Notes: generated by a model not told the origin, from the letters alone. A stretch of 64,000 bases of DNA from Escherichia coli (GCF_029227855.1 NZ_CP074356.1); one strand, 5' to 3'. Shown: positions 112-33,021, numbered from the stretch's first letter. Translations and numbers: made by a program.

Positions 112-444
112 ATGACGAGCAAAGAAACCTTTACCCATTACCAGCCGCTGGGCAACAGTGACCCGGCTCATACCGCAACCGCGCCAGGCGGATTGAGTGC
201 GAAAGCGCCTGCAATGACCCCGCTGATGCTGGACACCTCCACCCGTAAGCTGGTTGCGTGGGATGGCACCACCGACGGTGCTGCTGTCGGCATTCTTGCT
301 GTTGCTGCTGACCAGACCAGCACCACGCTGACGTTCTACAAGTCCGGCACGTTCCGTTATGAGGATGTGCTCTGGCCGGAGGCTGCCAGCGACGAGACGA
401 AAAAACGGACCGCGTTTGCCGGAACGGCAATCAGCATCGTTTAA
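112..444 (+). CDS. D: Head decoration protein gpD
   Basis: [12 protein letters not shown]...FAGTAISIV is essentially the lambda gpD sequence (110 aa). The ATG at 112 is preferred over the ATG at 106 because lambda D starts MTSKE. Confidence 0.95.
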
Positions 445-465
445 CCTTACCCTTCATCACTAAAG

Positions 466-486
466 GCCGCCTGTGCGGCTTTTTTT
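466..486 (+). terminator. Small hairpin plus T-run between D and E, as in lambda
   Basis: GCCGC (466-470) pairs with GCGGC (475-479), followed by T7 at 480-486. Confidence 0.5.
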
Positions 487-499
487 ACGGGATTTTTTT

Positions 500-775
500 A
501 TGTCGATGTACACAACCGCCCAGCTGCTGGCGGCAAATGAGCAGAAATTTAAGTTTGATCCGCTGTTTCTGCGTCTCTTTTTCCGTGAGAGCTATCCCTT
601 CACCACGGAGAAAGTCTATCTCTCACAAATTCCGGGGCTGGTAAACATGGCGCTGTACGTTTCGCCGATTGTTTCCGGTGAGGTTATCCGCTCCCGTGGC
701 GGCTCCACCTCTGAATTTACGCCGGGATATGTCAAGCCGAAGCACTTAGCATGGCTTTCTGAGGCTTTCGTGTAG
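500..775 (+). pseudogene. E: Major capsid protein gpE, 5' fragment (codons 1-82) running into island DNA
   Basis: MSMYTTAQLLAANEQKFKFDPLFL...SEFTPGYVKPKH matches lambda gpE residues 1-82. After base 745 the frame reads LAWLSEAFV and stops at 773-775. The rest of E resumes at 11872. Confidence 0.93.
735..744 (+). repeat. Left copy of the 10-bp direct repeat AGCCGAAGCA (attL core)
   Basis: Identical 10-mer at 11864-11873. Both copies lie on the E codons for K-P-K-H. Confidence 0.8.
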
Positions 776-872
776 CTGCTGGTTTTTACACTTAATCTTT
801 TGATAATAAAGAATAAGTTTATCTGGCGCTTTCACTGAATTTTCCTCGTTATCTGTGTGTTGCAATCATCTC

Positions 873-893
873 TGTATTGCAGCTTGTATTGCT
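873..893 (+). repeat. Tandem TGTATTGC motif (TGTATTGCAGCTTGTATTGCT), candidate arm-type Int binding site, left arm
   Basis: A near-identical 21-mer (TGTATTGCAGCATGTATTGCT) lies in the same orientation at 11768-11788. A degenerate third copy, TGTGTTGCAA, lies at 857-866. Confidence 0.5.
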
Positions 894-907
894 TTTTGGG
901 GCTAAAA

Positions 908-2143
908 ATGGCTGGCGAGAACAAACTGAGCGACAAAGCGCTTAAAGGATATCTGGGGAAACCCAGAGAAAAGCAGATCACCATTGCTGATGGAAAGGGG
1001 CTTTCTATTCGTGTGAGTACTAAAGGGGCTGTGAGCTTTGTTTTCTTCTACAGGTTAGCAGGTGGCCGGGCTGCTCCGGTCTGGCTAACGTTGGGTAAAT
1101 ATCCTGATATGTCACTCAAACAGGCAAGGGAAAAGCGCGACGAGTGCCGTGGTTGGTTGGCTGACAAACGTGATCCGCGTATCCAGATTAAGATTCAGGC
1201 TGAAGAACGCTTAAAGCCGGTCACAGTGGAGGATGCACTAAATTACTGGTATGAAAATTACTGTAAGGTGCGTCGTAAAACTCATGCTGTAACGCTTGGC
1301 AGATTTCGAAAGCATATCTTTCCCTATATCGGTCATTTGCCCGTAAATGACACTCACCTATATGAATAGCTGGACTGTTTTGACCGAATTAAACGTAATG
1401 CACCAGTTATGGCGGCGTATGTTTTTTCTGACACTAAATTAGCTCTTCGTTTTTGTCGGGTACGCCAGTACGCGACGTGTGATGCTTTAAAGGATTTGCG
1501 CATGAGTGATGTGGGGCAGATTGCAGGTAAGCGGGATCGGGTTCTGGATGAGGTCGAACTCGGCCAGCTCTGGAAGGCAATTTTTGTCGAGCCTGATTTA
1601 AAACTAATGTCTGAATACACGCGAAAAATGTTTGTGCTTTGTACAGTATTTGGATGTCGAATGAGTGAAGCCCGATTATCAGAATGGAGCGAATGGGATC
1701 TCGAAAGTTGGGTTTGGACTGTGCCAAAAGATCACTCAAAAACTGGTGTTGAAATCGTCAGACCAGTACCTGAAATTCTACGACAGTGGGTAACGGATGT
1801 TCACGAAGAGACAAAACATACTGGTTATGTGCTGGGAAGTCTGCGAATTAGAGAAAGCGTAAGCAAGATTGGGGGGAAAATCGGTAAACGTTTGGGCCAT
1901 GAAAAACAATGGTCACTACACGACCTTAGAAGAACGCTATCTACTCATCTAAGTGATCTCGGTGTTGAATTTTATGTAGTAGAACAACTGTTAGGCCATG
2001 CGCTACCTGGCGTGGCAGGTGTTTACAACCGGAGTAAGTTTATGGCTAAAAAACTGGATGCTCTGGAACTCTGGACTACATATCTCAATAGCATCGCAGC
2101 TGCTGATTCAAAAGTGACAATCCTCAAACAAAAGGCTGGTTAG
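908..2143 (+). pseudogene. int: P4-family tyrosine integrase interrupted by one in-frame amber codon
   Basis: ORFs 857-1369 and 1409-2143 are in the same frame, separated only by TAG at 1367-1369 (context LYE*LDCFDRI; TGG/Trp would fit). The C-terminal part has HDLRRT, LLGH and GVYNRS catalytic-type motifs. The ATG at 908 gives MAGENKLSDKALK. Confidence 0.85.
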
Positions 2144-2144
2144 C

Positions 2145-2375
2145 ATGAAAAAAATGGCAATTGTTGATAAAAAGGGTCTGGAGTACATTCCTAACATTGA
2201 CCGAATGATCCGTGAGAAAGAATGTCGGGAGCTAACTACTCTTGCGAACAGCACACGCTGGAAGCTGGAGAAGGAAGGAAAATTTCCTAAGCGGATCAAG
2301 ATTGGTTCCACTGCTGTTGCATATCGTCTTTCAGAAGTGCAGGCATGGATTCGAGGTGAGTGGGAAACAACTTAA
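2145..2375 (+). CDS. alpA: AlpA-family HTH regulator/excisionase-like protein
   Basis: 76 aa. IREKECRELTTLANSTRWKLEKEGKFPKRIKIGSTAVAYRLSEVQAWI fits the AlpA pattern (G-FP-P-K-G ... W-x-x-EV-x-W). The ATG lies 1 nt after the int stop. Confidence 0.8.
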   Translation: MKKMAIVDKKGLEYIPNIDRMIREKECRELTTLANSTRWKLEKEGKFPKRIKIGSTAVAYRLSEVQAWIRGEWETT

Positions 2376-2382
2376 CTATTAG

Positions 2383-3213
2383 GTGGGCATTGTGGCTATA
2401 TTTCATTATACAGATCTTTTTGGTTTGAAAGGTATATTAGACTCTAATTCTTTATGGGCTACAAACATATATTTCTTAAATGATAAAGAGGAGTCTAACC
2501 ATGGATGTGAATGCTTTCGAAATACAATTAAAATAGTTGATGACAATATCATTCCAAAAGATAAGAAAACTATTTTGCTCAAGTCTCTTGACATGTATGA
2601 GAAAGGGAGGTTACAAAAAGAAAAAGGGATTGATAAACATGTTTATAGCATCTCTTTTTGTAAGGAAAACGATAAGTTAAGTCAGTGGAGAGGTTACGGA
2701 AATAAACAGGGTGTTTGCATTGAGTTTGATGCGGATGAACTTGTGAGCTTTTCTCAAAATATTTATTTAAATTGTGTTGCACATGATGTTATATATTCAA
2801 ATAATAACGATATTACTAAGATGAGTAAGGAGTTGGGAGAGTTTTTTTCTTGTAATGGTATTAATATTAAAGAAATGAATGATCATTTTGTAACAATGGT
2901 CTCTACGTATCAATTTATATCTAAATACATCCCATTTTTTAAACATCCTAGTTTTATCGAAGAGAATGAATTTAGATTGGTATTTACTCCGTGGATGCAA
3001 ATGCCAGATGTGCACTTCAGAATAAATAATAATGGGATCATCCCTTATATCATCATTGATAATAAAGATAATAGAAAGTTACCAATTAAAAGCATTACAA
3101 TTGGCCCGACAAACGATTATGATTTCATTGAGGCTGGTATAAAAATGTTCTTGGATTCAAGAGGATTTAGTTCTGTGGAAATTAAATCCTCATCAATTCC
3201 ATTCAGGGGGTAA
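2383..3213 (+). CDS. DUF2971-like protein (AT-rich cargo)
   Basis: 276 aa with a GTG start. Motifs FHYTD...GIL, FLNDKEE, SISFC...DKLSQWRGYG..GVCIEF and KHPSFIEENEFR resemble the DUF2971 signature. The gene is markedly AT-rich compared with its neighbours. Confidence 0.6.
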   Translation: MGIVAIFHYTDLFGLKGILDSNSLWATNIYFLNDKEESNHGCECFRNTIKIVDDNIIPKDKKTILLKSLDMYEKGRLQKEKGIDKHVYSISFCKENDKLSQWRGYGNKQGVCIEFDADELVSFSQNIYLNCVAHDVIYSNNNDITKMSKELGEFFSCNGINIKEMNDHFVTMVSTYQFISKYIPFFKHPSFIEENEFRLVFTPWMQMPDVHFRINNNGIIPYIIIDNKDNRKLPIKSITIGPTNDYDFIEAGIKMFLDSRGFSSVEIKSSSIPFRG

Positions 3214-3258
3214 GGATTAACACTTTTAATCTATGATATTATAAAAATGGTGGATAAA

Positions 3259-3278
3259 GGCGACCAGAATTGGTCGCC
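3259..3278. terminator. Hairpin between the convergent cargo genes
   Basis: GGCGACCA (3259-3266) pairs with TGGTCGCC (3271-3278). Confidence 0.4.
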
Positions 3279-3344
3279 AATGTGAGTATATAGTTAGCCT
3301 TAATCAGAATACGAGGTTATCGCCTGATAGGCAATGTGAACAGT

Positions 3345-3701
3345 TCAATATTTAGGTGGTTCAACAAGAGCGTTTATCATTGCTCTCAAATTATCGCGAA
3401 CACTTATCCAAGTCTGTTCTGCTCGTTCTAACTCATCAGTGTACAACTTTAATGTTTTATCTATGCCATATGTGGCTATTAAATTTATAGCTTCTTGTAA
3501 TTTTTCAGGATTATTCCTTCTTGGGGGAGTGAATATACCACGGATTTTTCCGGTAATTAAAGCTTTACGGTGTCTACATAGAATACCTTTACTTCCTGCT
3601 GGACAATTACAAGTCATGATTAGCGAGCCAGAATCGTTTGATACAGTGACTATGTATACATCCAAACTACTGCTACTTGTTGCGAAGAATTCGTATTTCA
3701 T
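3345..3701 (-). CDS. Small SWIM-type zinc-finger protein
   Basis: 118 aa. CNCPAGSKGILCRHRKAL fits the CxC...CxH SWIM motif. Convergent with the DUF2971-like gene. Confidence 0.6.
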   Translation of the reverse strand: MKYEFFATSSSSLDVYIVTVSNDSGSLIMTCNCPAGSKGILCRHRKALITGKIRGIFTPPRRNNPEKLQEAINLIATYGIDKTLKLYTDELERAEQTWISVRDNLRAMINALVEPPKY

Positions 3702-3728
3702 GTGTTAGCTCCTTGACTTCAATTATTC

Positions 3729-3920
3729 TTATCCTTTTGGTTCAATACCGCGCCGTAGCAGCTCTTTGCGCCCTAATTCTTTAAGCCAGTTGGCTAGGCT
3801 TATGCCGTCGCTCTGCGCTTCTTTGTCGAATTGCTCTTTTAGCTCTGGAGAAATTCGCATTCTGAATTGTGGAGATTGCCCATCACCCTTAGGACTTTTA
3901 TCGCGTTTGATCGTTGACAA
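3729..3920 (-). CDS. Arc/Mnt-like ribbon-helix-helix repressor candidate
   Basis: SPQFRMRISPELKEQFDKEAQSDGISLANWLKE resembles the Arc N-terminus (PQFNLRWPREVLDLV...). I prefer the TTG start at 3920, which is preceded by AGGTGG. The ATG at 4043 in the ORF track would add a low-complexity extension that overlaps the divergent leader. Confidence 0.55.
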   Translation of the reverse strand: MSTIKRDKSPKGDGQSPQFRMRISPELKEQFDKEAQSDGISLANWLKELGRKELLRRGIEPKG

Positions 3921-3965
3921 GTGACCACCTATTGAATTAGCCTTTTCATTGTTAGGTGACCACCT
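3921..3965. promoter_or_regulatory. Two direct copies of GTGACCACCT, candidate operators in the divergent control region
   Basis: Exact 10-mers at 3921-3930 and 3956-3965. The second copy lies within the palindrome AGGTGACCACCT. The first abuts the repressor start. Confidence 0.4.
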
Positions 3966-3991
3966 TAACACGGGGGCACTTAAAAAAGCAA

Positions 3992-4022
3992 AGCCCGAAG
4001 GTGCTGGGAACACCAACGGGCT
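3992..4022 (+). ncRNA. Structured hairpin in the leader of the early operon (possible C4/CI-like immunity RNA element)
   Basis: AGCCCG-AA-GGTG-CTGGGAA-CACC-AA-CGGGCT forms a two-tier stem with a symmetric AA/AA internal loop. It lies about 40 nt upstream of an icd-like gene, the position of c4 in P1 immI. Confidence 0.3.
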
Positions 4023-4059
4023 TCTAACCACCAACGATAGCAACAGTATCGAGGTAGCT

Positions 4060-4263
4060 ATGAGAAATCATACCACACACCCGCAAGGGCGGGACCCGCA
4101 CAACCTGAATAAATACATCTGGCGTTTTATCGCCTTGAGTACGGCACAACCGCGCATGATTACCATCGAGGCCATCAGCGAACAGGAAGCCCGCCAGCAA
4201 TCCCCAACTGGCTGCGTGATGGTATTCGCCGCCCGTATTCGTCAGGAGGTGTGCCGTGCTTAA
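4060..4263 (+). CDS. Icd-like (cell division inhibitor-like) small protein
   Basis: 67 aa. KYIWRFIALSTAQPRMITIEAISEQEARQQSP...FAARIRQEV matches my memory of Icd-like proteins from P4-type satellites. GAGGT lies 5 nt upstream of the ATG at 4060. Confidence 0.55.
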   Translation: MRNHTTHPQGRDPHNLNKYIWRFIALSTAQPRMITIEAISEQEARQQSPTGCVMVFAARIRQEVCRA

Positions 4264-4441
4264 AACCTTCCGTGTATTTGCCCGAGCTGTTAACCCACTG
4301 GGCCACACAATTGGTATCACTCAGAACGTGAAGGCTGTTAATGTTCAGACGGCTATTGCTGCGGTGAGAAGCGAATCATCAGAATATGGCTTATCACAAG
4401 TCATTATTTCAGCAGTGTATGAATTAAAAGAGGTGCATTAA
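4256..4441 (+). CDS. Hypothetical protein
   Basis: 61 aa with a GTG start overlapping the upstream stop. Part of a tightly packed same-strand operon. Confidence 0.45.
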   Translation: MLKTFRVFARAVNPLGHTIGITQNVKAVNVQTAIAAVRSESSEYGLSQVIISAVYELKEVH

Positions 4442-4632
4442 TGCAGGAAATCACATTACACGAAGCCGCTGAACGTGCGCACCAGACAGAAATTATTTGC
4501 CGCCTTCTTGAGGTATACCCGAACAAAATTACAGATGCTGATATATCCGCGCTGGCGAGCCTACTGGCGCGCCTTTCGGGAAGTGTCGCTAGTTTCCTGA
4601 TTGAGGAAGAAAGTAAGCTGGTGGGGGATTAA
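4441..4632 (+). CDS. Hypothetical protein
   Basis: 63 aa. TAATG overlap with the upstream gene suggests translational coupling. Confidence 0.5.
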   Translation: MQEITLHEAAERAHQTEIICRLLEVYPNKITDADISALASLLARLSGSVASFLIEEESKLVGD

Positions 4633-4854
4633 ATGAATACAGAACGGGAAGTCTTTTTTAAATTGTTAGCATGTGCAGAAAGTTCATTAACTTTAAATAA
4701 TTCAGCAAAAGCAATATTAAATATGTGGCTTGATTGCATAAATGACAATGAAGATGCAAATATTGCTTATGGCCTGTTGTCACTTATTGATGAATCAGCA
4801 GAAAAACTCAATGACGCAATAAATAGTGCCCTGCTATCAAATAAGTCGAGTTAA
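4633..4854 (+). CDS. Hypothetical protein (AT-rich)
   Basis: 73 aa. The ATG directly follows the upstream TAA. Confidence 0.5.
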   Translation: MNTEREVFFKLLACAESSLTLNNSAKAILNMWLDCINDNEDANIAYGLLSLIDESAEKLNDAINSALLSNKSS

Positions 4855-4871
4855 GTCGAGGAATAAATAAT

Positions 4872-5171
4872 ATGGAAATGAAAAATTCTGGCTTTATTGC
4901 CAGCGGCCCCGCTCGGCCTGAATTTATGAACGGCGATATTTACCGCGATAAATACGGCGGCACGGTAACGATTAAAGGCGTGGCAGAACGGCGCATCACT
5001 TACCGCCGTGAGGGGTATAGCTATGACTGCGTGATGCCTGTTTATCAGTTCCGGCGTGATTTTTCCCTGGTATATGCCGCACCCCGCAGTAAGCCCATCA
5101 GCAGGGAAAAAGCGCGGGGAAACATCCAGAAAATGAAAAGCATGATTAACGCATTCAGGGGCAAAAAATGA
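4872..5171 (+). CDS. Hypothetical protein
   Basis: 99 aa. ATGA overlap with the primase-helicase gene. Confidence 0.55.
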   Translation: MEMKNSGFIASGPARPEFMNGDIYRDKYGGTVTIKGVAERRITYRREGYSYDCVMPVYQFRRDFSLVYAAPRSKPISREKARGNIQKMKSMINAFRGKK

Positions 5172-6919
5172 AACTGGCACCGAACTTAAAAAAACAGCCA
5201 CGCGACAGACTGACAGAGGTAATCATCTTTGCAGGTAGTGATGCGTGGAGCCATGCGAAAGAGTGGCGGGAATGGGCGGGTAAACATATTGCCGCCGACG
5301 ATGTGCCGCCTGTCGTGCTGGCTGATGAGCAACTGAAAAATATCACCGATTACCGGATCATTGATGAAGATCGTCAGTGTGTGCGTGTTTACCGCGCAGG
5401 ACATATCACAGAGCACAGCATGACGCAGATTGTTACGTTACTGGCTGTGGCTGGAGTGAAGACCGTACACGAATACGCGGGGATTACTGACACCAGCCCA
5501 GTGGATTTATCCGAGCAGTTGCCGCGACTCAAAGAGGAATGCGAGCGTGGGGAAAGTCTGGTGCTTAATCTTCCGACGAAGCAAAAGGCGCAACTTTCAC
5601 AGATGGCAGACAGTGAACGTGCACAACTACTTGCCGATCGCTTTGATGGTGTGTGTGTTCATGCAGAAAGTGAAATCGTCCACGTATGGCGCGGCGGGGT
5701 ATGGTGTCCGGTCAGCACAATGGAGCTGAGCCGCGAAATGGTGGCGATCTATTCAGAGCACAGGGCCACGTTCAGCAAACGTGTAATCAATAACGCCGTG
5801 GAAGCGTTAAAAGTTATTGCCGACCCCATGGGGGAGCCGTCCGGTGATTTGCTACCGTTCACTAATGGTGTGCTTAACCTGAAAACGGGGGAATTTTCTC
5901 CGCACTCGCCGGAGCACTGGAGCACCACGCACAATGGCATTGAGTACACGCCACCAGTAGCAGGGGAAAACATCCGCGATAATGCGCCAAATTTCCATAA
6001 ATGGCTTGAACATGCTGCAAGAAAAGACCCGCGCAAGATGATGCGTATATGTGCCGCGTTATACATGATTATGGCGAACCGCTACGACTGGCAGATGTTC
6101 ATTGAGGCCACCGGAGACGGGGGAAGCGGTAAGAGTACATTTACCCATATTGCCACCCTGCTTGCTGGCAAACAGAACACCGTAAGCGCGGAGATGACAT
6201 CACTCGATGATGCAGGAGGGCGCGCGCAGGTTGTCGGGAGTCGTCTTATCGTCCTTGCCGATCAGCCGAAATATACGGGGGAAGGCACGGGCATCAAGAA
6301 AATCACGGGAGGCGATCCCGTTGAAATTAACCCGAAATATGAGAAGCGATTCACGACGATAATAAGGGCGGTGGTACTGGCAACCAATAACGACCCGATG
6401 ATCTTTACCGAACGGGCCGGAGGTGTGTCACGCCGTCGGGTGATTTTCCGGTTCGACAACATTGTAAGGGAGGACGAAAAAGACAAGGAATTACCGGAAA
6501 AGATAGCGGCAGAAATCCCCGTAATTATCCGCCGCTTGCTGGCTAATTTTGCTGACCCTGAAAAGGCACGGGCTTTATTACTGGAACAGCGTGACGGTGA
6601 TGAAGCTCTGGCAATAAAGCAGCAAACGGATCCGGTTGTTGAGCTTTGCGCGGCGCTGGAGTTTCTGGAGGAAGCTCGTGGGCTAATGATGGGCGGTGGT
6701 GGTGACACCGTGAAGTACACGACCAGAAACAGCCTTTACCGTGTCTATATGGCCTTCATGGCATACACAGGAAAGGGGAAATGTTTGAGCGTGAATGAGT
6801 TCGGAAAGGCTATGAGGTCAGCGGCGAAAGTTTACGGATATGAATATATTACGCGAAAAGTTAAGGGAGTCACGCAGACCAACGCAACGACTACTGATGA
6901 TTGCGATGCGTTTTTATAA
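5168..6919 (+). CDS. P4/D5-family primase-helicase (replication initiator, pri-rep type)
   Basis: 583 aa. FHKWLEHAARKD...YDWQMFIEATGDGGSGKSTF fits the phage/plasmid primase P4-family C-terminal NTPase with a Walker A motif. An iteron field lies immediately downstream. Confidence 0.8.
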   Translation: MKLAPNLKKQPRDRLTEVIIFAGSDAWSHAKEWREWAGKHIAADDVPPVVLADEQLKNITDYRIIDEDRQCVRVYRAGHITEHSMTQIVTLLAVAGVKTVHEYAGITDTSPVDLSEQLPRLKEECERGESLVLNLPTKQKAQLSQMADSERAQLLADRFDGVCVHAESEIVHVWRGGVWCPVSTMELSREMVAIYSEHRATFSKRVINNAVEALKVIADPMGEPSGDLLPFTNGVLNLKTGEFSPHSPEHWSTTHNGIEYTPPVAGENIRDNAPNFHKWLEHAARKDPRKMMRICAALYMIMANRYDWQMFIEATGDGGSGKSTFTHIATLLAGKQNTVSAEMTSLDDAGGRAQVVGSRLIVLADQPKYTGEGTGIKKITGGDPVEINPKYEKRFTTIIRAVVLATNNDPMIFTERAGGVSRRRVIFRFDNIVREDEKDKELPEKIAAEIPVIIRRLLANFADPEKARALLLEQRDGDEALAIKQQTDPVVELCAALEFLEEARGLMMGGGGDTVKYTTRNSLYRVYMAFMAYTGKGKCLSVNEFGKAMRSAAKVYGYEYITRKVKGVTQTNATTTDDCDAFL

Positions 6920-6932
6920 AAAATGGCAATGG

Positions 6933-7161
6933 TTATCTACCTTGTCTACCTGACTGAAAGAAAATACTTTTATTTCAATGTATTAATGCAGGTAGATAAC
7001 TATTTTTCACTGTCTACCTGTTATCTACCTTATCTACCCATTTTTGTAGACAGGTAAGGAGACGGGTAGAGATGAGGTAGACAGCTATTTGGGGCTGTCT
7101 ACCTCCCTGAAACCCGCGCCATTACTGGCCTGATAACTAATCAGGTAGACAAGGTAGACAA
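6933..7161. repeat. Iteron field, candidate satellite origin of replication
   Basis: At least 10 copies of GGTAGA(C/T)A or its complement, in both orientations: 6933-6941, 6942-6950, 6991-6999, 7011-7018, 7021-7029, 7030-7038, 7077-7085, 7095-7103, 7144-7152, 7153-7161. AT-rich spacers lie around 6955-6990. Confidence 0.75.
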
Positions 7162-7208
7162 GGTGGTGGTGCACAAAAAACTTTTTAAACGAGGGGGTAA
7201 AAATAAAA

Positions 7209-7466
7209 ATGCACACTTCAGGAAAACTGAACAAACATATAAAGCCACATTACCGCGCCCTTGATATGGCTGAACACTGGCTAAGGGTGGCGATTAAGGC
7301 AATAGACCGCAACGCCGGGGAAGGATACGCGAAAGCACATCCCGAACTGATAAGCGCATTCATGACAACGGCGGCTGCAAACTTTGCCACGCTGACCGAA
7401 CGGGAGATTGCTGAAGCGGAGGAAGTGACAACAATCAATATTAAGTCCGGAGAGCAGGCAGCATGA
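7209..7466 (+). CDS. Hypothetical protein
   Basis: 85 aa. ATGA overlap with the SSB gene. Confidence 0.5.
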   Translation: MHTSGKLNKHIKPHYRALDMAEHWLRVAIKAIDRNAGEGYAKAHPELISAFMTTAAANFATLTEREIAEAEEVTTINIKSGEQAA

Positions 7467-7912
7467 CGGCGCAAATATCAGTTTACGGGCGGTTGGTGGA
7501 CGACCCGCAGACAAAACAGACCAGCAAGGGCACCCCCATGACGCTGGCGCGTATGGCGGTATCACTGCCCTGCAGTCAGTCGGATGACGGTCTGGCGACG
7601 TTGTGGTTATCTGTCCTGGCGTTTGGCAGACAAGCCGACGCGCTGGCAAAGCATCACAAAGGCGAACTCCTGAGCGTGGCGGGTAACATGCAGATGAGCC
7701 AGTGGACTGGACAGAACGGCGAAACGCGGCAGGGCTGGCAGGTTATCGCAGACAGCGTAATCAGTGCGCGATCGGTGCGACCGGGCGGCAAAAAAGGCCA
7801 ACAGGGGCAGGCTACTGACGCACTGAACAGAGCAAAACAACAGGCAGATCAGCAAGGAAGCCAGCCACCAGAGGGAGATAATGAGCAATGGGGAGATGAT
7901 ATCCCGTTTTAA
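7463..7912 (+). CDS. ssb: Single-stranded DNA-binding protein (SSB family)
   Basis: 149 aa. OB-fold-type N-terminus (VYGRLVDDPQTKQT...WLSVLAFGRQAD...KGELLSVAGNMQMSQW), a Gln/Gly-rich linker, and the canonical acidic tip DDIPF. Confidence 0.8.
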   Translation: MTAQISVYGRLVDDPQTKQTSKGTPMTLARMAVSLPCSQSDDGLATLWLSVLAFGRQADALAKHHKGELLSVAGNMQMSQWTGQNGETRQGWQVIADSVISARSVRPGGKKGQQGQATDALNRAKQQADQQGSQPPEGDNEQWGDDIPF

Positions 7913-7923
7913 ATATTGCCAAT

Positions 7924-7954
7924 AAAAAAAGCCGGAAAAAATAAATTTTCCGGC
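7924..7954 (-). terminator. Hairpin with its T-run only on the minus strand, between the replication and capsid modules
   Basis: GCCGGAAAA (7931-7939) pairs with TTTTCCGGC (7946-7954). A7 at 7924-7930 gives a U-tract only for leftward transcription. Confidence 0.4.
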
Positions 7955-8128
7955 ATGCTACATAAATCCCGACCAAAGGGAGTGAAGATATTAACACTAA
8001 TTGTCCGCACTGAAGTTGTCACACCAAAACTTTATACAACATTGCACTCGGTTGCATGTGTTCGCATGACAAATATCGGTGATAGCATATATCCACAATT
8101 ATTTTTAATGAATGCAAAGAGGATGCGT

Positions 8129-9169
8129 ATGGTTGATTTATATTCGCCTACTCAGCTTGTACAGGTAGTTAATGCTGTAGATGTACAAAAACAACTAAAT
8201 GCGTTGTTTACCAGTTTGTTTTTTACTCGCTCGGTAATGTTTGAATCGCGCGATATTATTCTTGATACAATCGACGATCCAAATATCCCAATTGCAGCGT
8301 TTTGTTCTCCTATGGTGGGTAGTAAAGTTTCACGTGACGAAGGGTACGAATCAAAAACAATTCGTCCAGGCTATATGAAGCCGAAAAGCAGCATTGATCC
8401 AAATAAGTTAGCTGTGCGCCCTGCTGGTGTGTCACCTGAGCAATACAATGCTTTTGGGGCGCGTAATATTAAAGTTAAACAGGCGATTGTAAATCAGGCT
8501 AAAGCTATTCGTGCACGTATTGAATGGCTTGCTGTTCAGGCAATCACAACGGGGAAAAATATCATTGAGGGCGATGGTATTGAACGTTATGAGCTGGACT
8601 GGAATATAAAACCACAAAATATCATCACTCAGTCTGGCGGTACTGAGTGGTCAGGTAAGGATAAAGAAACTTTTGATCCAAATGATGATATTGAGAGCTA
8701 CGCAGAATTTAGTGAGGGCGTCACTAATATCATCATTATGGGTGGTAATGTATGGAAGAAATACCGTTCATTCAGAGCGATAAAAGAGGCTTTGGATACC
8801 CGTCGTGGTTCTAATTCCGAACTGGAAACGGCCCTTAAAGACCTTGGTGATTCGGTGAGTTTTAAAGGGTATATGGGCGATGTTGCGATTGTTGTTTACA
8901 GCGGGCGTTATACCGACGAGGACGGAACAGAAAAACATTTCCTTGATCCTGATTTGATGGTGCTTGGCAATACGGCTCTTCAGGGGATTGTCGCCTATGG
9001 CGGTATTCAGGATCCGGAGCTAATCCGAATGGGGCTGACTAAAGCCGAACTTGCACCGAAAAACTATATTGTGCCTGGTGATCCGGCTATTGAATATGTG
9101 CAGACACATTCAGCACCACAGCCAATACCGGCCCGCATCAATCGTTTTGTTACCGTTCGCATTGGCTAA
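8129..9169 (+). CDS. Satellite-encoded major capsid protein, gpE (lambda E) family
   Basis: 346 aa. The C-terminal half aligns by eye with lambda gpE: ITQSGGTEWSGKDKETFDPNDDIESYA, LDTRRGSNSELETALKDLG, YMGDVAIVVYSGRY, MVLGNTA, PGDPA. The N-terminal half is much more diverged. The ATG at 8129 has AAGAGGA 6 nt upstream. The longer ORF from 7916 has no homology support. Confidence 0.88.
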   Translation: MVDLYSPTQLVQVVNAVDVQKQLNALFTSLFFTRSVMFESRDIILDTIDDPNIPIAAFCSPMVGSKVSRDEGYESKTIRPGYMKPKSSIDPNKLAVRPAGVSPEQYNAFGARNIKVKQAIVNQAKAIRARIEWLAVQAITTGKNIIEGDGIERYELDWNIKPQNIITQSGGTEWSGKDKETFDPNDDIESYAEFSEGVTNIIIMGGNVWKKYRSFRAIKEALDTRRGSNSELETALKDLGDSVSFKGYMGDVAIVVYSGRYTDEDGTEKHFLDPDLMVLGNTALQGIVAYGGIQDPELIRMGLTKAELAPKNYIVPGDPAIEYVQTHSAPQPIPARINRFVTVRIG

Positions 9170-9178
9170 GGGGGAGCA

Positions 9179-9520
9179 ATGGCTACTCATTACACTGAAC
9201 TCATGGCTGGCACTGAAGCACTGGTGACTACGCTGGGGATATTTTCAGCTAATAAAGGGGTAATTCCTGCATTTACGCCACTGATGCAGGAAGATGCAAC
9301 AGGTGCACTGGTGGTATGGGATGGTTCGAGCGTAGGTAAAGCGGTTTATGTTTCCGCTGTACAAATCGACACCGCGAAAAAAACACAGGCTCAGGTCTAT
9401 AAGACAGGTGTCTTAAATGTTGATGCTCTGAACTGGCCTGAGTCTGTTAAAGAACTGTCAGTAAAGGTTGCAGCGTTTGTTGGCTCAGGTATTTCTGTTC
9501 AGCCGCTGGCTCGTGTGTAA
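9179..9520 (+). CDS. Satellite-encoded head decoration protein, gpD family
   Basis: 113 aa. Shares TPLM, LVxWDG, YKxG, LxWPE and AFxGxGIS with lambda gpD in the same order. Confidence 0.75.
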   Translation: MATHYTELMAGTEALVTTLGIFSANKGVIPAFTPLMQEDATGALVVWDGSSVGKAVYVSAVQIDTAKKTQAQVYKTGVLNVDALNWPESVKELSVKVAAFVGSGISVQPLARV

Positions 9521-9531
9521 AGGGGGATACA

Positions 9532-9915
9532 ATGCAGAATGATTACAATGACCTTAAGCCAATTGCCGAAATGATGTACCCGAATCAAGCTGTAGAGGAA
9601 TTAAAAGCTATCGCTGACAAAATGTGTTTAAGCGAGCGCCTTGTTGATATGAATCAGGTGATGGAAATTACAACCCTGAGTCGTCGTACACTGCTAAACC
9701 TTGAGGCTAGTGGAGAGTTCCCGGAGCGTGTGCAGGTTACGGAAGGGCGTAAGGCCTGGTATTTAAGTGAAGTGATCGACTGGATAAATAATATTCCTCG
9801 CGCTTCTGAATATTGCCGCGTACCTGTCCCAAAAAAGCCAGATGCGGCGCTATGCCTCAAGATTGAGCGTGTACGCCGCAATGCACGGGATGGTCGCTAT
9901 AAGCTGATTGGTTGA
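9532..9915 (+). CDS. AlpA/MerR-like winged-HTH protein immediately upstream of cos
   Basis: 127 aa. MNQVMEITTLSRRTLLNLEASGEFPERVQVTEGRKAWYLSEVIDWI fits the AlpA pattern. It is the last gene before the cos site. Confidence 0.65.
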   Translation: MQNDYNDLKPIAEMMYPNQAVEELKAIADKMCLSERLVDMNQVMEITTLSRRTLLNLEASGEFPERVQVTEGRKAWYLSEVIDWINNIPRASEYCRVPVPKKPDAALCLKIERVRRNARDGRYKLIG

Positions 9916-9922
9916 TGAAATT

Positions 9923-9948
9923 AGGACCCGCTCTGGCTGGCGGGTCCT
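9923..9948 (+). terminator. Hairpin after the capsid module
   Basis: AGGACCCGC (9923-9931) pairs with GCGGGTCCT (9940-9948), followed by TTCC (a weak T-run). Confidence 0.45.
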
Positions 9949-9954
9949 TTCCGG

Positions 9955-10140
9955 CGATCCAGAACGTTACGGGGCGTCAGGCGCGCAGTTTTTCGCTATT
10001 TGTGAAAATTTTCCTGTTTAAGGCGTTTCCGTTCTTCTTCGCCGTAACTTAATGTTTTTATTAAAAACACCCCCTAAAAAGAAAGGAAACGACAGGTGCT
10101 AAAAACAGGCTTTTTGGCCTCTGTCGTTTCCTTTCTCTGG
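9955..10140 (+). other. cos: Lambda-type cos site (cosN plus cosB R3-I1-R2-R1) with no adjacent terminase genes
   Basis: CGTTACG|GGGCGTCAGGCG|CGCAGTTTTTCGCTATTTGTGAAAATTTTCCTGTTTAAGGCGTTTCCGTTCTTCTTCG...GAAAGGAAACGACAGGTGCT...GGCTTTTTGGCCTCTGTCGTTTCCTTTCTCTG is collinear with my memory of the first ~180 bp of lambda. The R-site repeats CGTTTCC lie at about 10023-10034, 10081-10095 (inverted) and 10121-10135. The predicted 12-nt end at 9972-9983 matches lambda GGGCGGCGACCT at 7 of 12 positions. Confidence 0.85.
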
Positions 10141-10479
10141 TTTTGTTGCCATCCGTCGCGGTCTATCACCAGAAAAAATCTTATCCCTGAGTTGAATCAG
10201 GCCCTATTCAGAAGCGGCCAATAACGCGCCGCTAGCTTCACTTCATAGTTATGGCCTACTTCTGCGCCATTGCAATTGCTTTATGCGCCTTGATGGTGGA
10301 ATATAGAGCAAGCAGTTTGCGAATAACAAAGTTTCATATGTTTTTTGCTGTGTGGCTAGACAACTTTACAGCAGAGTTTTGTGTCAGTTCTTTATGTGTG
10401 CAAGCAAGCTTGAGGGGGAATTACTTCTGGCTGTATCTTTGCTTAAGAACAGCAATAATTTAATCATAAGGAAATGTAT

Positions 10480-10506
10480 ATAAGCCTGATTAAATTTCAG
10501 GCTTAT
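10480..10506 (-). terminator. Hairpin just downstream of the TIR gene
   Basis: ATAAGCCTGA (10480-10489) pairs with TCAGGCTTAT (10497-10506), 8 nt past the stop of the minus-strand gene. Confidence 0.5.
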
Positions 10507-10513
10507 TGAAATG

Positions 10514-11656
10514 TTAACTCCTTATTAGAGAGTAAATTCCATCCTCTTTAAGGAAGTCTATTACTTCAAAGAATGAGATAAAGAATTCCCAAGAACCAAA
10601 AGCATATGCATGAATTTCGTAAGGTGCAAAATGGAATCTAAATCCATCACTATTTATTGTGAACGAGTCTAAGTTACTATCCATGATACCCGTTGCAAAC
10701 GTACTAATGTCGTCCTCACTTGGTTTTTCACCAGTTTTCTCCCAAAATTCACGAGCTGATTCAGAGATTATTTTTTGTTTTATCTTATTAATCGCTTCTT
10801 GCTCTTTCCCTTCGGTAAATACATCCCATAAACTAAATTTGTATGCGTAGTCATCCTTGGTTATTACGAAATTACTAGTTTCAAAATGACTGTTAGGGTG
10901 TGCTGCTCCCGCACCATACCAATGTACGGAATGAAGGATGCTCATGACATTTTCGTTACAGTATGAGATGTTATAACTTTCATTATAGGAACTAGTGTAA
11001 GTGTGTTTATATTCTTCATCCCAATATGGTGTTCCTGGCCATAGTGATGTGCGTTCAGAAAAAATATGTAAAGCCGCTTTTCCTGAAAAGTAATCACTAA
11101 TGAGTTTTGCTGATTTCGGTAATGTATGGCTTTCAATTCTTGGATATGCTATTTCAATTTCATGCCCTGGGATCTTGTTATATTCTTCCTTGAAAACCTC
11201 GCTGCTAAAGTTAAATGGCCCATAAGTGATACCTTGAGATATTTCAAGTTTTTGTTGCGATGCTGCTAATCTTAAAGATCTAGATAAAATGTCCCAACCA
11301 TCATTTCTCTTAAAATCAATGAATTGGAGCTTGCTTGATATGTAGGCGGGTACTTCGCAATCATCAATAAGTAATGGTATCACGAACACATCATCTGGTT
11401 TGTAATACTTTAGTTTATCAATGGCGTCATTTATTTCGCGGCGAATATAACCATTTTTCTGAGTGCTCACTTTGCTAAGGATAAGGATTATCAAGTTTGA
11501 ATTAGCGAAGTTTTTTTGGATTTCATAATCCCAGTTTACGCCAGCGGGTATATCTTTTACATCCATCCAAGGGGAATATCCTCCACTTTTTAGCCTTTCA
11601 TAGATTTCTTCAGTTATCGTTTCATCTTCTTTTGCATGAGCAAGAAAAATTTTCAT
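10514..11656 (-). CDS. TIR-domain protein fused to a DUF4163/DUF3298 (RsiV-like) C-terminal domain
   Basis: 380 aa with no signal peptide or TM segment visible. The N-terminus (MKIFLAHAKEDE...GYSPWMDVKDIPAGVNWDYEI...SNLIILILSKVSTQKNGYIRREINDAI) fits the TIR_2 pattern, including the conserved Glu position. The C-terminus has IEIAYPRI... and HWYGAGAAHPNSHFETSNF...FSLWDVF, resembling the DUF4163 and DUF3298 motifs. AT-rich. Confidence 0.7.
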   Translation of the reverse strand: MKIFLAHAKEDETITEEIYERLKSGGYSPWMDVKDIPAGVNWDYEIQKNFANSNLIILILSKVSTQKNGYIRREINDAIDKLKYYKPDDVFVIPLLIDDCEVPAYISSKLQFIDFKRNDGWDILSRSLRLAASQQKLEISQGITYGPFNFSSEVFKEEYNKIPGHEIEIAYPRIESHTLPKSAKLISDYFSGKAALHIFSERTSLWPGTPYWDEEYKHTYTSSYNESYNISYCNENVMSILHSVHWYGAGAAHPNSHFETSNFVITKDDYAYKFSLWDVFTEGKEQEAINKIKQKIISESAREFWEKTGEKPSEDDISTFATGIMDSNLDSFTINSDGFRFHFAPYEIHAYAFGSWEFFISFFEVIDFLKEDGIYSLIRS

Positions 11657-11767
11657 TGAATATTCCTTTATAATTTAACTAATTAAGTGAAGGAGGCTTT
11701 ACTTGGCTGTGTTAGAAAAAATTCGGTTTGTTTTTTGTACGATGCCAAGAAGGCTTTTCCCTAACCA

Positions 11768-11788
11768 TGTATTGCAGCATGTATTGCT
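11768..11788 (+). repeat. Tandem TGTATTGC motif (TGTATTGCAGCATGTATTGCT), candidate arm-type Int site, right arm
   Basis: Matches 873-893 at 20 of 21 positions, in the same orientation. Confidence 0.5.
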
Positions 11789-11863
11789 ACGTAATTCTGC
11801 ACCCTCTCATTTATAAAATAAATCTCTGTTAAATCAAGTATCTTTTTTCTATTTGACTCATGT

Positions 11864-11873
11864 AGCCGAAGCA
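11864..11873 (+). repeat. Right copy of the 10-bp direct repeat AGCCGAAGCA (attR core)
   Basis: Identical to 735-744. Followed by TGAGGTGAATCCGCAG, the continuation of lambda E (H-E-V-N-P-Q). Confidence 0.8.
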
Positions 11874-12699
11874 TGAGGTGAATCCGCAGATGACCCTGCG
11901 TCGCCTGCCGGATGAAGATCCGCAGAATCTGGCGGACCCGGCTTACCGCCGCCGTCGCATCATTATGCAGAACATGCGTGACGAAGAGCTGGCCATTGCC
12001 CAGGTCGAAGAGATGCAGGCAGTTTCTGCCGTGCTTAAGGGCAAATACACCATGACCGGTGAAGCCTTCGATCCGGTTGAGGTGGATATGGGCCGCAGTG
12101 AGGCGAATAACATCACGCAGTCCGGCGGCACGGAGTGGAGCAAGCGTGACAAGTCCACGTATGACCCGACCGACGATATCGAAGCCTACGCGCTGAACGC
12201 CAGCGGAGTGGTGAATATCATCGTGTTTGATCCGAAAGGCTGGGCGCTGTTCCGTTCCTTCAAAGCCGTCAAGGAGAAGCTGGATACTCGTCGCGGCTCT
12301 CATTCCGAGCTGGAGACAGCGGTGAAAGACCTGGGCAAAGCGGTGTCCTACAAGGGGATGTATGGCGATGTGGCCATCGTCGTGTATTCCGGACAGTACG
12401 TGGAAAACGGCGTCAAAAAGAACTTCCTGCCGGACAACACGATGGTGCTGGGGAACACTCAGGCACGCGGTCTGCGCACCTATGGCTGCATTCAGGATGC
12501 GGACGCACAGCGCGAAGGCATTAACTCCTCTGCCCGTTACCCGAAAAACTGGGTGACCACCGGCGATCCGGCGCGTGAGTTCACCATGATTCAGTCAGCA
12601 CCGCTGATGCTGCTGGCTGACCCTGATGAGTTCGTGTCCGTACAACTGGCGCAATCGTGGCCCTTCGGGGCCATTTTCTCTCTGTGGAGGAGTCCATGA
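11872..12699 (+). pseudogene. E: Major capsid protein gpE, 3' fragment (codons 82-341), with loss of the normal stop
   Basis: HEVNPQMTLRRLPDEDPQNLADPAYRRRR...DPDEFVSVQLA matches lambda gpE 82-341. The expected TAA is CAA (12652-12654), so the frame runs 15 more codons (QSWPFGAIFSLWRSP) to TGA at 12697-12699. Confidence 0.93.
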
Positions 12700-13091
12700 C
12701 GAAAGATGAACTGATTGTCCGTCTCCGGTCGCTGGGTGAGCAACTGAACCGTGATGTCAGCCTGACGGGGACGAAAGAAGAACTGGCGCTCCGTGTGGCA
12801 GAGCTGGAAGAGGAGCTTGATGACACGGATGACGCTGCCGGTCAGGATACCCCTCTCAGACCGGAAAATGCGCTGACCGGACATGAAAATGAGGTGGTAT
12901 CAGAGCAGCCGGATACCATGATTGATACGGCTGCTCTGGTCACGGTCGTGGCACTGGTGACGCTGCATACTGATGCACTTCACGCCACGCGGGATGAACC
13001 TGTGGCATTTGTGCTGCCGGGAACGGCGTTTCGTGTCTCTGTCGGTGTGGCAGCCGAAATGACAGAACGTGGCCTGGCCAGAATGCAATAA
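12696..13091 (+). CDS. FI: DNA-packaging/head-completion protein FI
   Basis: MTKDELIVRLRSLGEQLNRDVSLTGTKEELALRVAELEEEL...MTERGLARMQ is close to lambda gpFI. Confidence 0.92.
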   Translation: MTKDELIVRLRSLGEQLNRDVSLTGTKEELALRVAELEEELDDTDDAAGQDTPLRPENALTGHENEVVSEQPDTMIDTAALVTVVALVTLHTDALHATRDEPVAFVLPGTAFRVSVGVAAEMTERGLARMQ

Positions 13092-29386: not shown

Positions 29387-29459
29387 TGCATTACGAACTG
29401 CAGGATATTATATGGGATAATATTCTGCAGTTTATTGGGGCTGTATTTTAAAAAGGTGT

Positions 29460-30791
29460 TTATTTTGAGTGAATTATCACCTTGTTTTTTCCGGTTCTTT
29501 TGGCTTGATATAACGCTTTGTCGGCATTGACTAACATTTCAGATGGACTGAGATTATTCTCTTTTGAAGCAAAGCAACCAATACTGACAGTTATTTTCTC
29601 AGGTCCATGCGATAATAATTTTTCCGAGCATTGCTCTTCAATGTTTTTTCTGATTCGCTCTGCAATTGATAGCAAGAGTTTTTGAGTATTACCTTTAATG
29701 ATAATACCGAACTCCTCACCGCCTAAGCGCCCTAATATATCCTCTTTCCTGATGGATTTTTTTATTATTCTGGTAACCATTACTATGACTTGATCACCCA
29801 TATGATGCCCCCATTTGTCATTGATGCTTTTGAAACTGTCAATATCTAACATTATTACTGAGAAATCATGGTGTTTTGATATATTCTTCAATGAGTCAAT
29901 AAAGTATCTTCTATTGTATGTATTCGTTAGTGGATCATGAATTGCCATATGATTAGCATGATTTAATTTCCTGAAAACATAATACATGAGTGTTGAAATG
30001 ATATAAATCATTGATATCAATTCAAGAAATTTTGTCATGTACCATGCAGGATGGGATTTATCAATAAAATACAATAAAATTAGATTATTGCATACTGACA
30101 CTATACTAATAAGTATTATACACAACCATATTTTTGAGTAATTACGTATGCTGATGCATGAGCTGATAAGTAATACAAGCCAAAATACTGATATTATTTT
30201 GGTGTACACGATATTCCACGTCGACAAATGACGATTCAGCGAGTATTGTATAATATTAAGACTATATTTTATATGGTCACTGCTTAGATTTTTTGCTACA
30301 AACGGAGTAATAAAAAGAATTAATATTGACAAAACAACAATTATTATGTTTCTTTTATCTTCTAAAATACTTTTATTTTTAACATTGGTGGAATAAACAG
30401 CCAGAAAGATTATAGATATAAAGCTGAACTGACGGAATAGATAATATATTGCGATATCATTTGATTTCTGATAGATTGTAGATAAATCGTTACCTAACGG
30501 AGATAAAGAAATAATAGCCACTTCTAATAAATAATACGTGTTGCTCAAAAACGCGAATGAAAGAATTAAGAGATAACTTTGTCTCTGATTAGAAACATAG
30601 TAAAGCAATAGAAAAATAAAAATCATCAGGTTTATGAAAAAAAGCCCAATAATGAAAACACTATAACTTATTTGTGTTGTTTGTGTTATGTATATTCCAT
30701 TATTTTCATGCAGTAACAAAAATATAATAGAGATGCATGAAAATAAAAAGATGAAGATTTTTATTTTTATAGGTACCTGGTTGATAATCAT
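29460..30791 (-). CDS. Membrane-bound GGDEF diguanylate cyclase (AT-rich prophage-end cargo)
   Basis: 443 aa. About 8 TM segments, then HDPLTNTYNRRYF...DIDSFKSINDKWGHHMGDQV...GRLGGEEFGIII...ADKALYQAKRTGKNKV (intact GGEEF). Very AT-rich. Confidence 0.85.
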   Translation of the reverse strand: MIINQVPIKIKIFIFLFSCISIIFLLLHENNGIYITQTTQISYSVFIIGLFFINLMIFIFLLLYYVSNQRQSYLLILSFAFLSNTYYLLEVAIISLSPLGNDLSTIYQKSNDIAIYYLFRQFSFISIIFLAVYSTNVKNKSILEDKRNIIIVVLSILILFITPFVAKNLSSDHIKYSLNIIQYSLNRHLSTWNIVYTKIISVFWLVLLISSCISIRNYSKIWLCIILISIVSVCNNLILLYFIDKSHPAWYMTKFLELISMIYIISTLMYYVFRKLNHANHMAIHDPLTNTYNRRYFIDSLKNISKHHDFSVIMLDIDSFKSINDKWGHHMGDQVIVMVTRIIKKSIRKEDILGRLGGEEFGIIIKGNTQKLLLSIAERIRKNIEEQCSEKLLSHGPEKITVSIGCFASKENNLSPSEMLVNADKALYQAKRTGKNKVIIHSK

Positions 30792-31050
30792 GTACGCACC
30801 TGAGAATGATATATATATAATATGTATCGCTACAAATAACGATAATTTCTTACTGGTGATAGTATACTATTATTCTGGTTAATCGCTGTCAAATTGATGA
30901 TTTTGGTTAGTATTGCAATAGCGAAGGGTTTGATCCGGTAAGACTGGCTAGGCAAGGCTATACCAAAAAATCAGTGTAGGTTCAGAAAACGATGCACCAT
31001 ACAATCATCAATAATTTCAAATTGTCCATTGTGCATAAATCATAAAGAAA

Positions 31051-31085
31051 ACCGCAGCACGTCGTATGCAAGAACGTGCTGCGGT
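31051..31085 (-). terminator. 12-bp perfect-stem hairpin with a T-rich tail on the minus strand
   Basis: ACCGCAGCACGT (31051-31062) pairs with ACGTGCTGCGGT (31074-31085). On the minus strand it is followed by TTTCTTTATGAT. No obvious upstream gene. Confidence 0.35.
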
Positions 31086-31383
31086 TGGCTGGTGAGCTTT
31101 CGATAGTGCGAGTATTGAATGATTTCCAGACGTTACCGATTTTATATAACTGCAGTGGAATTATTCAACACACAGGCAAAACGGAATAAGCTGAGAAAAA
31201 AGCGTGCTTTCCCAATCTGGGGCAAATCACGTCTGAATGACACCTGAAAACAGGTGGTAGCCTCAAGAAGGCTTGGAATATTCTTCTTTAATGTTATGTA
31301 ATTCATTGATTTTTCTTGTACGATTTTAAGACATTTATTCCAAGAAAAATTTTTAACTCTTTGATTTTTCGACTCTGTATCAT

Positions 31384-31445
31384 CGGTCTCGAAAACCGGA
31401 GTAGGGGCAACTCTACCGGGGGTTCAAATCCCCCTCTCTCCGCCA
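31384..31445 (+). tRNA. serU: 3' 62-nt fragment of tRNA-Ser (serU-like), probable prophage attR core and not a functional tRNA
   Basis: CGGTCTCGAAAACCGGAGTAGGGGCAACTCTACCGGGGGTTCAAATCCCCCTCTCTCCGCCA covers the anticodon-stem 3' side, the long variable arm, the T-arm and the acceptor 3' end with CCA. The 5' half (GGAGAGATGCCGGAGCGG...) is absent. Confidence 0.8.
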
Positions 31446-31993
31446 CTTTATCAATGACTTATCTCCCGACTTCCCGCCTTGCTTTTCCTAAACAGAACAA
31501 TCGTAGAATATTCTTGAAGGGTTAGATCGTCACTGTTTTCTGTTCGATACTGTGACATTCAGCACTTGATTCGCTATGGATCTGACAGGAAGGTTTCGAG
31601 CGAAAATCTGCAATTATTCAGTCGTTTTCTTATCGGTCACCATTATTCTTTTAGACATTGATCCTACAAAGCTGCCGCAAAGTTGGTGGTGGGAACTGAA
31701 GTTGCGTAGAGAAGGGGGCAATAATTGAGCAAAAAAAGGAACGCGGCCGTCAGATTAAAGCCGCGGGACAAAGTCCATAATTTCCAAGAGTTGTTGAATT
31801 TCCCAGCTTTTTTGAAAGCCTTTGTATCATACTAACAAGTAAAAAAGGTTTAAATACCAAAATTAACCTATATTTCTGGTTAGCTTTACCATGACAGATG
31901 ACTTGCTCCTGGAGACATTGGCGCAGCCAGTCTGTATTGGTGAGTTGTGTATTTATTGTTCGCCGTTTTCTCAGTTTTTTTCTACAGACGTAA

Positions 31994-32027
31994 TAAAAAA
32001 GACACGTCTCAAGCATGAGCGTGTCTG
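31994..32027 (-). terminator. Rho-independent terminator downstream of zinT
   Basis: AGACACG (32000-32006) pairs with CGTGTCT (32020-32026). A6 at 31995-32000 gives a U-tract on the minus strand. Confidence 0.65.
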
Positions 32028-32114
32028 AGTTTGTCTTATTTATTTGTCTTGGTAAATTATTGTCGTTACTACCAGGCACTGTTCTGTTAAATAATTGAAG
32101 TCAGCGCAAAAAAA

Positions 32115-32765: not shown

Positions 32766-32801
32766 AACAGTTTCCTCCAGAGTTAATGTATATGATATGT
32801 A

Positions 32802-32818
32802 ATGTTATATTGTAACAT
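32802..32818. promoter_or_regulatory. Zur box in the zinT promoter
   Basis: The palindrome ATGTTA-TATTG-TAACAT lies about 40 bp upstream of the zinT start. zinT is a known Zur regulon member. Confidence 0.65.
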
Positions 32819-32990: not shown

Positions 32991-33021
32991 GGATAACGCG
33001 TACTTTGTCGGCAATATGAAG

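Follow-up and report, generated by a model that had tools for sequence, protein, structure and literature searches.

The 64,000-nucleotide stretch of Escherichia coli DNA analyzed here (GCF_029227855.1, NZ_CP074356.1; hereafter the window) contains part of a lambda-type prophage in which the major capsid gene E is split by an island that bears the hallmarks of a phage satellite. E reads normally through codon 82 (500-745, + strand), and this 5' fragment matches Pfam Phage_cap_E positions 1-78 and, by tblastn, shows 100% identity to residues 1-82 of the restored protein. The frame then enters the island, continues for nine more codons and stops at 775. E resumes from codon 82 at 11872 (11872-12699, +), where the 3' fragment matches Phage_cap_E positions 80-328, and the profile match is therefore broken between positions 78 and 80. 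A repeat search located the 10-bp identity block AGCCGAAGCA at 735-744 (attL, +) and 11864-11873 (attR, +); these are the only two exact copies in the window, where chance would give a mean of 0.29, and they flank the break in E. The insert comprises 745-11873, or 11,129 bp. When 500-744 was joined to 11874-12699, one open frame resulted, with a junction that would read GTCAAGCCGAAGCATGAG, and in an alignment with lambda gpE (PDB 7vi9) that covers residues 1-341, the restored protein differed by three substitutions (E = 1.4e-227). The island is co-oriented with E and the late operon, and attP provides no replacement 3' end for E. These results bear out a preliminary description of this DNA, which had reported a normal E to codon 82, an 11,129-bp insert between 10-bp direct repeats and an E gene that recombination between the repeats would restore. 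Its statement on the 3' part stood as to the point at which E resumes and failed as to the end of E at residue 341, as the frame goes 15 codons beyond.

Islands with this arrangement have been named helper-embedded phage-inducible chromosomal islands (HE-PICIs) (Tommasini, Mageeney and Williams, 2023, NAR Genom Bioinform 5:lqad036; PMC10111431). The type element, Eco567.11capE (hereafter 11capE), is an 11-kb island of E. coli NRG857c that has a capsid gene of its own and is integrated at a 10-bp identity block in gene E of prophage 50icd. The group E_Phage_cap_E_80, whose att site falls near position 80 of the Phage_cap_E profile, comprises 201 elements at the E site, whereas a further 290 occupy 13 other late-gene sites (PMC10111431). 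The supplement lists the identity block agccgaagca for this group, the block at attL is listed there, and the left-end sequence given in the supplement matches positions 745-840 of the window. After addition of mitomycin C, the composite of prophage and satellite excises precisely and replicates, and the satellite then excises at 2 h, as measured by quantitative PCR, deep sequencing and read counting (PMC10111431). The preliminary description had taken the arrangement to be undescribed, which does not hold, because the family, the exact site and excision were all published in 2023. Furthermore, the attP centre of these elements is flanked by a doubled motif unique to the family, tgTGTATTGCantgTGTATTGCa, at a distance of 81 +/- 2 bp on the upstream side and 132 +/- 2 bp on the downstream side (PMC10111431). 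A scan of the window for the doubled TGTATTGC motif returned exactly two matches, with none expected: TGTATTGCAGCTTGTATTGC at 873-892 (+), a proposed arm-type binding site on the P' side, and TGTATTGCAGCATGTATTGC at 11768-11787 (+) on the P side. With the published tg prefix, the P' motif starts at 871, which is 131.5 bp from the core centre, and with the published trailing base, the P motif ends at 11788, which is 80.5 bp from the core centre.

We compared the island genes with those of 11capE (NC_017634.1). The integrase is 99.0% identical in amino acid sequence over 411 positions, which on this basis assigns it to the HE-PICI clade. Similarly high identity was found for AlpA (96%), the single-stranded DNA-binding protein SSB (95%), the satellite capsid homologue (99.4%), the decoration homologue (99.1%) and a second AlpA-like protein (99.2%), and cos falls in the same 95-99% range. 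In contrast, the primase (47%) and the DUF4222 protein (43%) represent different alleles. The two islands share the target codon in a lambda-type E, a 10-bp block, co-orientation with E, a size of about 11 kb and the distances of the doubled arm motifs. They differ in core, which is AGCCGAAGCA in the window (catalogued in PMC10111431) and AACCCAAGCA in 11capE, and in the accessory zone and cargo, which is TIR-DUF3298 in the window and HEPN+DUF262 in 11capE. The window helper is not at icd and its E has lost the stop codon, and the integrase of the island has a premature stop. The zone differences fit the "dynamic zones" of the published family, and the island is thus a mosaic that belongs to the published group. 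Integrase identity, the arm motif and the listed core together confirm the family, and with it the earlier proposal that a satellite sits inside, and is physically linked to, its helper's capsid gene. Taken together, we conclude that the island is an HE-PICI of a catalogued type and not a new kind of element; very probably, it is a member of group E:Phage_cap_E:80 and a mosaic relative of Eco567.11capE, and probably a locked copy.

The junctions and the predicted empty site were searched across complete E. coli genomes, as the preliminary description had proposed. The left junction, which joins E to the island end, was present in 172 of 5,426 genomes, and the right junction with the same TIR cargo in 15. 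The predicted empty site was continuous in 3,100 genomes, one of which matched at 100% over 400 nt. An integrase segment was found in 175 genomes, as compared with 172 for the junction, which indicates that nearly every copy of the integrase sits at the E site. None of the complete RefSeq E. coli genomes matched the whole island, and the best coverage was 87%, which suggests a mosaic of modules that are found separately in other strains. Among 61 IMG/VR loci identified by a satellite-type cohesive-end sequence (described below), every copy with a readable end sits in an E-family gene. One IMG/VR locus (L047) has AGCCGAAGCA at attL and AACCCAAGCA at attR, and these mixed cores place the exchange of strands within the right half of the block. 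Three others (L012, L016 and L061) lie in a more divergent E-family gene, with the core AGCCGAAACA or AACCCAAACA followed by CGAATTTAATTACCAG, which suggests that the integrase tolerates variant capsid targets.

Two changes are private to this copy. The integrase gene (908-2143, +; Pfam Arm-DNA-bind_3, Phage_int_SAM_3 and Phage_integrase) begins with an ATG 163 bp inside the left junction, close to the distance of about 160 bp given previously, and it is interrupted at codon 154, where TAG occupies 1367-1369 (TGG to TAG, W154*) and relatives have TGG. The TAG precedes the catalytic domain as delimited by Pfam, and as read from the sequence, this copy of the gene is a pseudogene. When 71 nt around the TAG were used as a query, the segment was found in the 175 complete E. 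coli genomes mentioned above with no perfect match, which indicates that the TAG allele is private to this sequence. Within the 64-kb window, we found no second related integrase and no suppressor tRNA, nor any tRNA at all. The second change is in helper E, where codon 342 reads CAA (12652-12654) in place of the expected TAA. The frame is extended by 15 codons to a TGA at 12697-12699 that overlaps the start of FI, so restored E would have 356 rather than 341 residues. A 75-nt stretch around the E stop had no exact match among 2,915 genomes. Both changes fit a decaying composite, and either could be a sequencing error. Decay is also seen in a relative in strain IAI39 (L072, NC_011750.1 532500-546500), which has the same TIR cargo and a primase with an internal stop; there, an insertion of IS3 has cut short the integrase and eliminated the left part of the helper beside a tRNA-Arg gene. 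Truncated helpers have also been noted elsewhere in the family (PMC10111431).

On account of the integrase nonsense codon, the most likely state of this copy, barring Int supplied in trans or an erroneous TAG, is a locked one. We consider it reasonably probable that the composite is locked, with the satellite unable to excise and helper E left in two parts. The preliminary description had also suggested that production of the helper capsid depends on satellite excision. That reading is supported, and the same argument in cis has been made for the family, in that E would not be expressible until excision and late transcription and replication would enter the satellite in cis (PMC10111431); in this copy, the switch is probably broken.

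The remaining island genes were identified by Pfam, PHROGs, the RefSeq annotation of relatives and PDB matches. The order of the four PICI zones is present within the 11,129 bp, namely int-alpA, a variable Bro/accessory zone, replication (pri, ori) and a late zone, and the size falls inside the general range of 10-20 kb for Gram-negative PICIs. Downstream of int lies alpA (2145-2375, +; Pfam Phage_AlpA, E = 3e-15), which encodes an excisionase/transcription regulator. The accessory zone (2383-3701) contains by Pfam a DUF2971 gene (2383-3213, +) and a SWIM zinc-finger gene (3345-3701, -), and other genes are found there in two relatives (L002 and L006). PHROGs, Pfam and the RefSeq annotation of the relative L001 define an Icd-like/repressor-type small early gene (4060-4263, +), three small early genes of unassigned function within 4060-5171 (+) and the DUF4222 gene (4872-5171, +). 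The primase-helicase gene (5168-6919, +; Pfam D5_N, DUF5906 and Pox_D5) is followed by a cluster of GGTAGACA/TGTCTACC iterons in both orientations, which a repeat scan located at 6928-7164 and which is a likely replication origin; in the published PICI layout, ori also lies downstream of pri (PMC10111431). A gene without assigned function (7209-7466, +) precedes the SSB gene (7463-7912, +; Pfam SSB, PHROG 1231).

The late zone begins with a satellite E-family major capsid gene (8129-9169, +; Pfam), whose 346-residue product shares 42% identity with helper E. Among solved structures, this product is closest to PDB 3bqw (E = 2.6e-121), which was deposited under the description of a putative prophage capsid protein. 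A search for AGCCGAAGCA found no att core in the satellite capsid gene, where the homologous stretch reads AGCCGAAAAGCA. Next are a head decoration gene of the lambda D family (9179-9520, +; Pfam HDPD, PHROG 49) and, directly upstream of cos, a gene for a second AlpA-family DNA-binding protein of 127 residues (9532-9915, +; Pfam Phage_AlpA, PHROG 2790, PDB 8c3t AlpA). The cos region (about 9926-10146, +) has cosQ and cosB repeats and is about 90% identical to the cos of one helper prophage from a related strain. The satellite hallmarks named in the preliminary description, which were AlpA, a D5/P4-type primase-helicase, iterons and a cos with no terminase gene after it, were thus all found. 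The slot adjoining attR holds a cargo gene for a 380-residue protein with a TIR domain and DUF3298 (10514-11656, -; Pfam TIR_2, E = 2.8e-21). This slot is variable, as relatives carry HEPN+DUF262 genes, Abi-type genes or a gene for a 311-residue protein of unassigned function. The TIR-DUF3298 cargo is presumed to serve anti-phage defence; PADLOC returned matches to the cargo genes at the level of the TIR domain only and no complete known defence system. An Rfam scan of 400-12800 at E <= 0.1 detected no RNA family, and thus no curated immunity RNA of the P4 type or any other. Between the E fragment and int, we saw no strong terminator pattern on the + strand, which is a weak test. Because promoter and terminator counts were not above those of shuffled sequence, they say nothing about read-through beyond this lack of a terminator.

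The helper genes in the window correspond to the late half of the prophage. A head decoration gene of the lambda D type lies just upstream of E (106-444, +; an open reading frame that relatives annotate as head decoration protein), and downstream of E on the same strand are FI through the tail genes, which continue through J, lom and the tail fibres at expected lengths. The right end of the prophage is at about 29.4 kb, after the tail fibre genes. Beyond it (about 29400-36000) are a diguanylate cyclase gene, zinT, msrQP, hiuH and hprRS. The location of this helper beside dgc/zinT and of 50icd at icd indicates that the helpers in which the satellite family resides occupy different chromosomal sites. 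Between the cyclase gene and zinT, one relative has a 72-bp remnant that is annotated as "capsid protein" and is unrelated to E.

We also examined the cohesive ends of satellite and helper, with cos nick positions placed by alignment to lambda-type cos. The predicted 12-nt cohesive end of the window island is GGGCGTCAGGCG (9972-9983), and the same sequence is present in all five islands read (the window island and those of L001, L002, L003 and L006, which include 11capE). The embedding helpers have the lambda-type GGGCGGCGACCT in each of the four cases read (L002, L008, L009 and L010, which include 50icd). Satellite and helper cosN therefore differ at 5 of 12 positions, whereas cosQ and the cosB R repeats are shared at about 90%. 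An exact scan of IMG/VR for the satellite-type cosN yielded the 61 loci, of which 51 are satellite-type, three are phage cos sites and seven are unassigned. In 17 of the 51 satellite-type loci (e.g., L012, L016, L020, L026, L027 and L031), a Nu1-like small terminase gene lies 163-192 nt downstream of cos, and its product is either about 71% or about 37% identical to helper Nu1. Neither the window copy nor 11capE has such a gene, and in the window the slot is taken by the TIR gene. At the three phage cos sites (L022, L059 and L070), the satellite-type cosN lies beside a Nu1 with 99% identity to a helper Nu1. We had considered whether the cosN difference is a barrier to helper terminase, and this idea is weakened by these three loci, which combine satellite-type cosN with helper-type Nu1 and suggest that the variant is within the natural range of the same terminase family.

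It is conceivable but improbable that the satellites in this group maintain a cohesive-end sequence of their own that is functional. If so, satellite DNA ends would be kept from annealing with helper ends, and any DNA that an unexcised composite gave rise to by packaging between the satellite cos and the helper cos would be unable to circularise, which would add a layer of packaging compatibility beyond the published description of the family (PMC10111431). Together with the int-null state, this would also allow the copy to be a natural locked composite that has only the satellite E and D homologues to supply head proteins. The preliminary description had further suggested that the satellite substitutes its own capsid protein for that of the helper. 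The published discussion proposes that the satellite capsid gene is possibly a backup copy, and it refers to previous work that found a PICI capsid gene to be dispensable for transfer (PMC10111431). Based on that dispensability, substitution stays a hypothesis.

For an active member of the family, we propose the following course. In 11capE, the composite excises and replicates after SOS induction, and satellite excision, which restores E, is delayed (PMC10111431). Q-dependent late transcription of the helper would pass through D and the 5' fragment of E into int-alpA, as the core satellite genes are co-oriented with E, and this read-through would supply Int and AlpA late in the cycle. The freed satellite would then replicate from its own primase and iteron origin, and helper terminase would package it at the satellite cos into helper-built particles, possibly aided by the satellite E and D homologues. 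Four 11.1-kb units, or about 44.5 kb, would fill a lambda-sized head, which agrees with packaging of four units as reported for an E. coli model PICI (PMC10111431). The reverse-strand TIR gene represents cargo in a variable slot.

Several observations weigh against the view that this island is a helper-dependent, packaged satellite now locked in place. Published work yielded no virions of helper or satellite (PMC10111431), which leaves helper dependence, packaging and transfer of this family as proposals. The attP junction of a free form was present in none of the 61 IMG/VR loci, and among 50,697 phage records none had the island, with only the cos stretch matching lambdoid phages. The window contains the late half of the helper only, which bears on helper competence. 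As to the locked state, the integrase nonsense codon results from one base of one sequence and is a possible sequencing error, and an intact HE-PICI integrase outside the window could act in trans. The copy would be fully active and able to excise as in NRG857c if the TAG arose in sequencing or assembly, if a suppressor tRNA reads through it or if Int is provided in trans. This is a realistic though doubtful alternative: beyond the single-base nature of the change, all other island genes read are open, the helper tail genes in the window have their expected lengths and the integrase segment is open in 175 relatives, but a second private change that alters function is present in this region (E stop TAA to CAA) and fits decay and poor sequence equally, neither a suppressor tRNA nor a second related integrase is present in the window, and decayed relatives exist.

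The absence of virions in the sole experimental study (PMC10111431) and of attP contigs in IMG/VR would also be expected if the island were mainly a brake on the prophage, in the service of the host or of the island, and a defence island, which would disable capsid production by the helper and be spread mostly vertically or inside the prophage and not transmitted in particles. Such a role would suit a cargo slot that holds TIR, HEPN+DUF262 or Abi-type genes depending on the copy, and the many truncated helpers. We nevertheless regard it as very unlikely, since a complete cos, a replication module and capsid genes are kept at 95-99% identity across strains, which is hard to explain without packaging and transfer, and since the family occurs in prophages at different sites (icd in NRG857c, dgc/zinT here), which implies horizontal movement. 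The preliminary description had noted that the split E might be an assembly chimera, and an artefact of this kind or a chance repeat has almost no remaining probability, as nothing was found in its favour. It is refuted by 172 complete genomes that were assembled independently and have the left junction, by the 15 in which the right junction adjoins this TIR cargo and by the empty site in 3,100; in addition, the core is confined to the two junctions, the distances of the arm motifs from it are fixed and precise excision has been measured for the type element (PMC10111431). We therefore retain the reading of a catalogued-type HE-PICI that is probably locked.

Comparison with other satellites places the island near, and apart from, several known systems. 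The cos PICIs of the EcCICFT073 type (Fillol-Salom et al. 2018, 2019) are similar in having int-alpA-pri-ori, an E-family capsid gene, lambdoid helpers and a cos without their own large terminase. In contrast to the island, EcCICFT073 occupies a chromosomal site and acts only in trans. EcCICFT073 also keeps the helper cosQ and cosN and has its own cosB, which is read by Rpp, whereas the island shares cosQ and cosB and differs in cosN. The Rpp-type group is defined by rpp beside cos and a PICI-specific cosB, and the island lies outside it; the gene beside cos had no PDB match to Rpp and matched AlpA instead (8c3t). P4 resembles the island in its integrase, AlpA-type regulator, D5/alpha-type primase-helicase, Icd-like gene, size of about 11 kb and packaging by way of helper cos, but it resides in a tRNA gene, uses P2-type helpers and relies on Sid and Psu to resize capsids. 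Homologues of sid, psu or delta were absent from the family matches of the scanned island genes, although no dedicated search for them was made. Like cf-PICIs, the island has its own major capsid gene, but the head module of a cf-PICI is complete (portal, protease, connectors and small terminase), which is what defines that group, whereas the island has only E and D homologues and falls outside it.

Regulated gene integrity, or active lysogeny, is known from the Bacillus skin element and the Listeria prophage in comK. As in those elements, the gene here is split without a replacement end, and a timed, precise excision would restore it, but the interrupted gene belongs to a helper prophage, which is itself another mobile element. 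It has been proposed that the switch serves the satellite and not the cell (PMC10111431). The arrangement, in the literature since 2022-2023, is one in which a parasite would physically gate the reproduction of another, and the window adds a further member of the catalogued type, possibly a dead one. For annotation, it means that three "major capsid protein" calls and two partial E pseudogenes represent one HE-PICI in one E gene, and for the biology of the family, it suggests that defence genes can be sought in the cargo slot adjoining attR.

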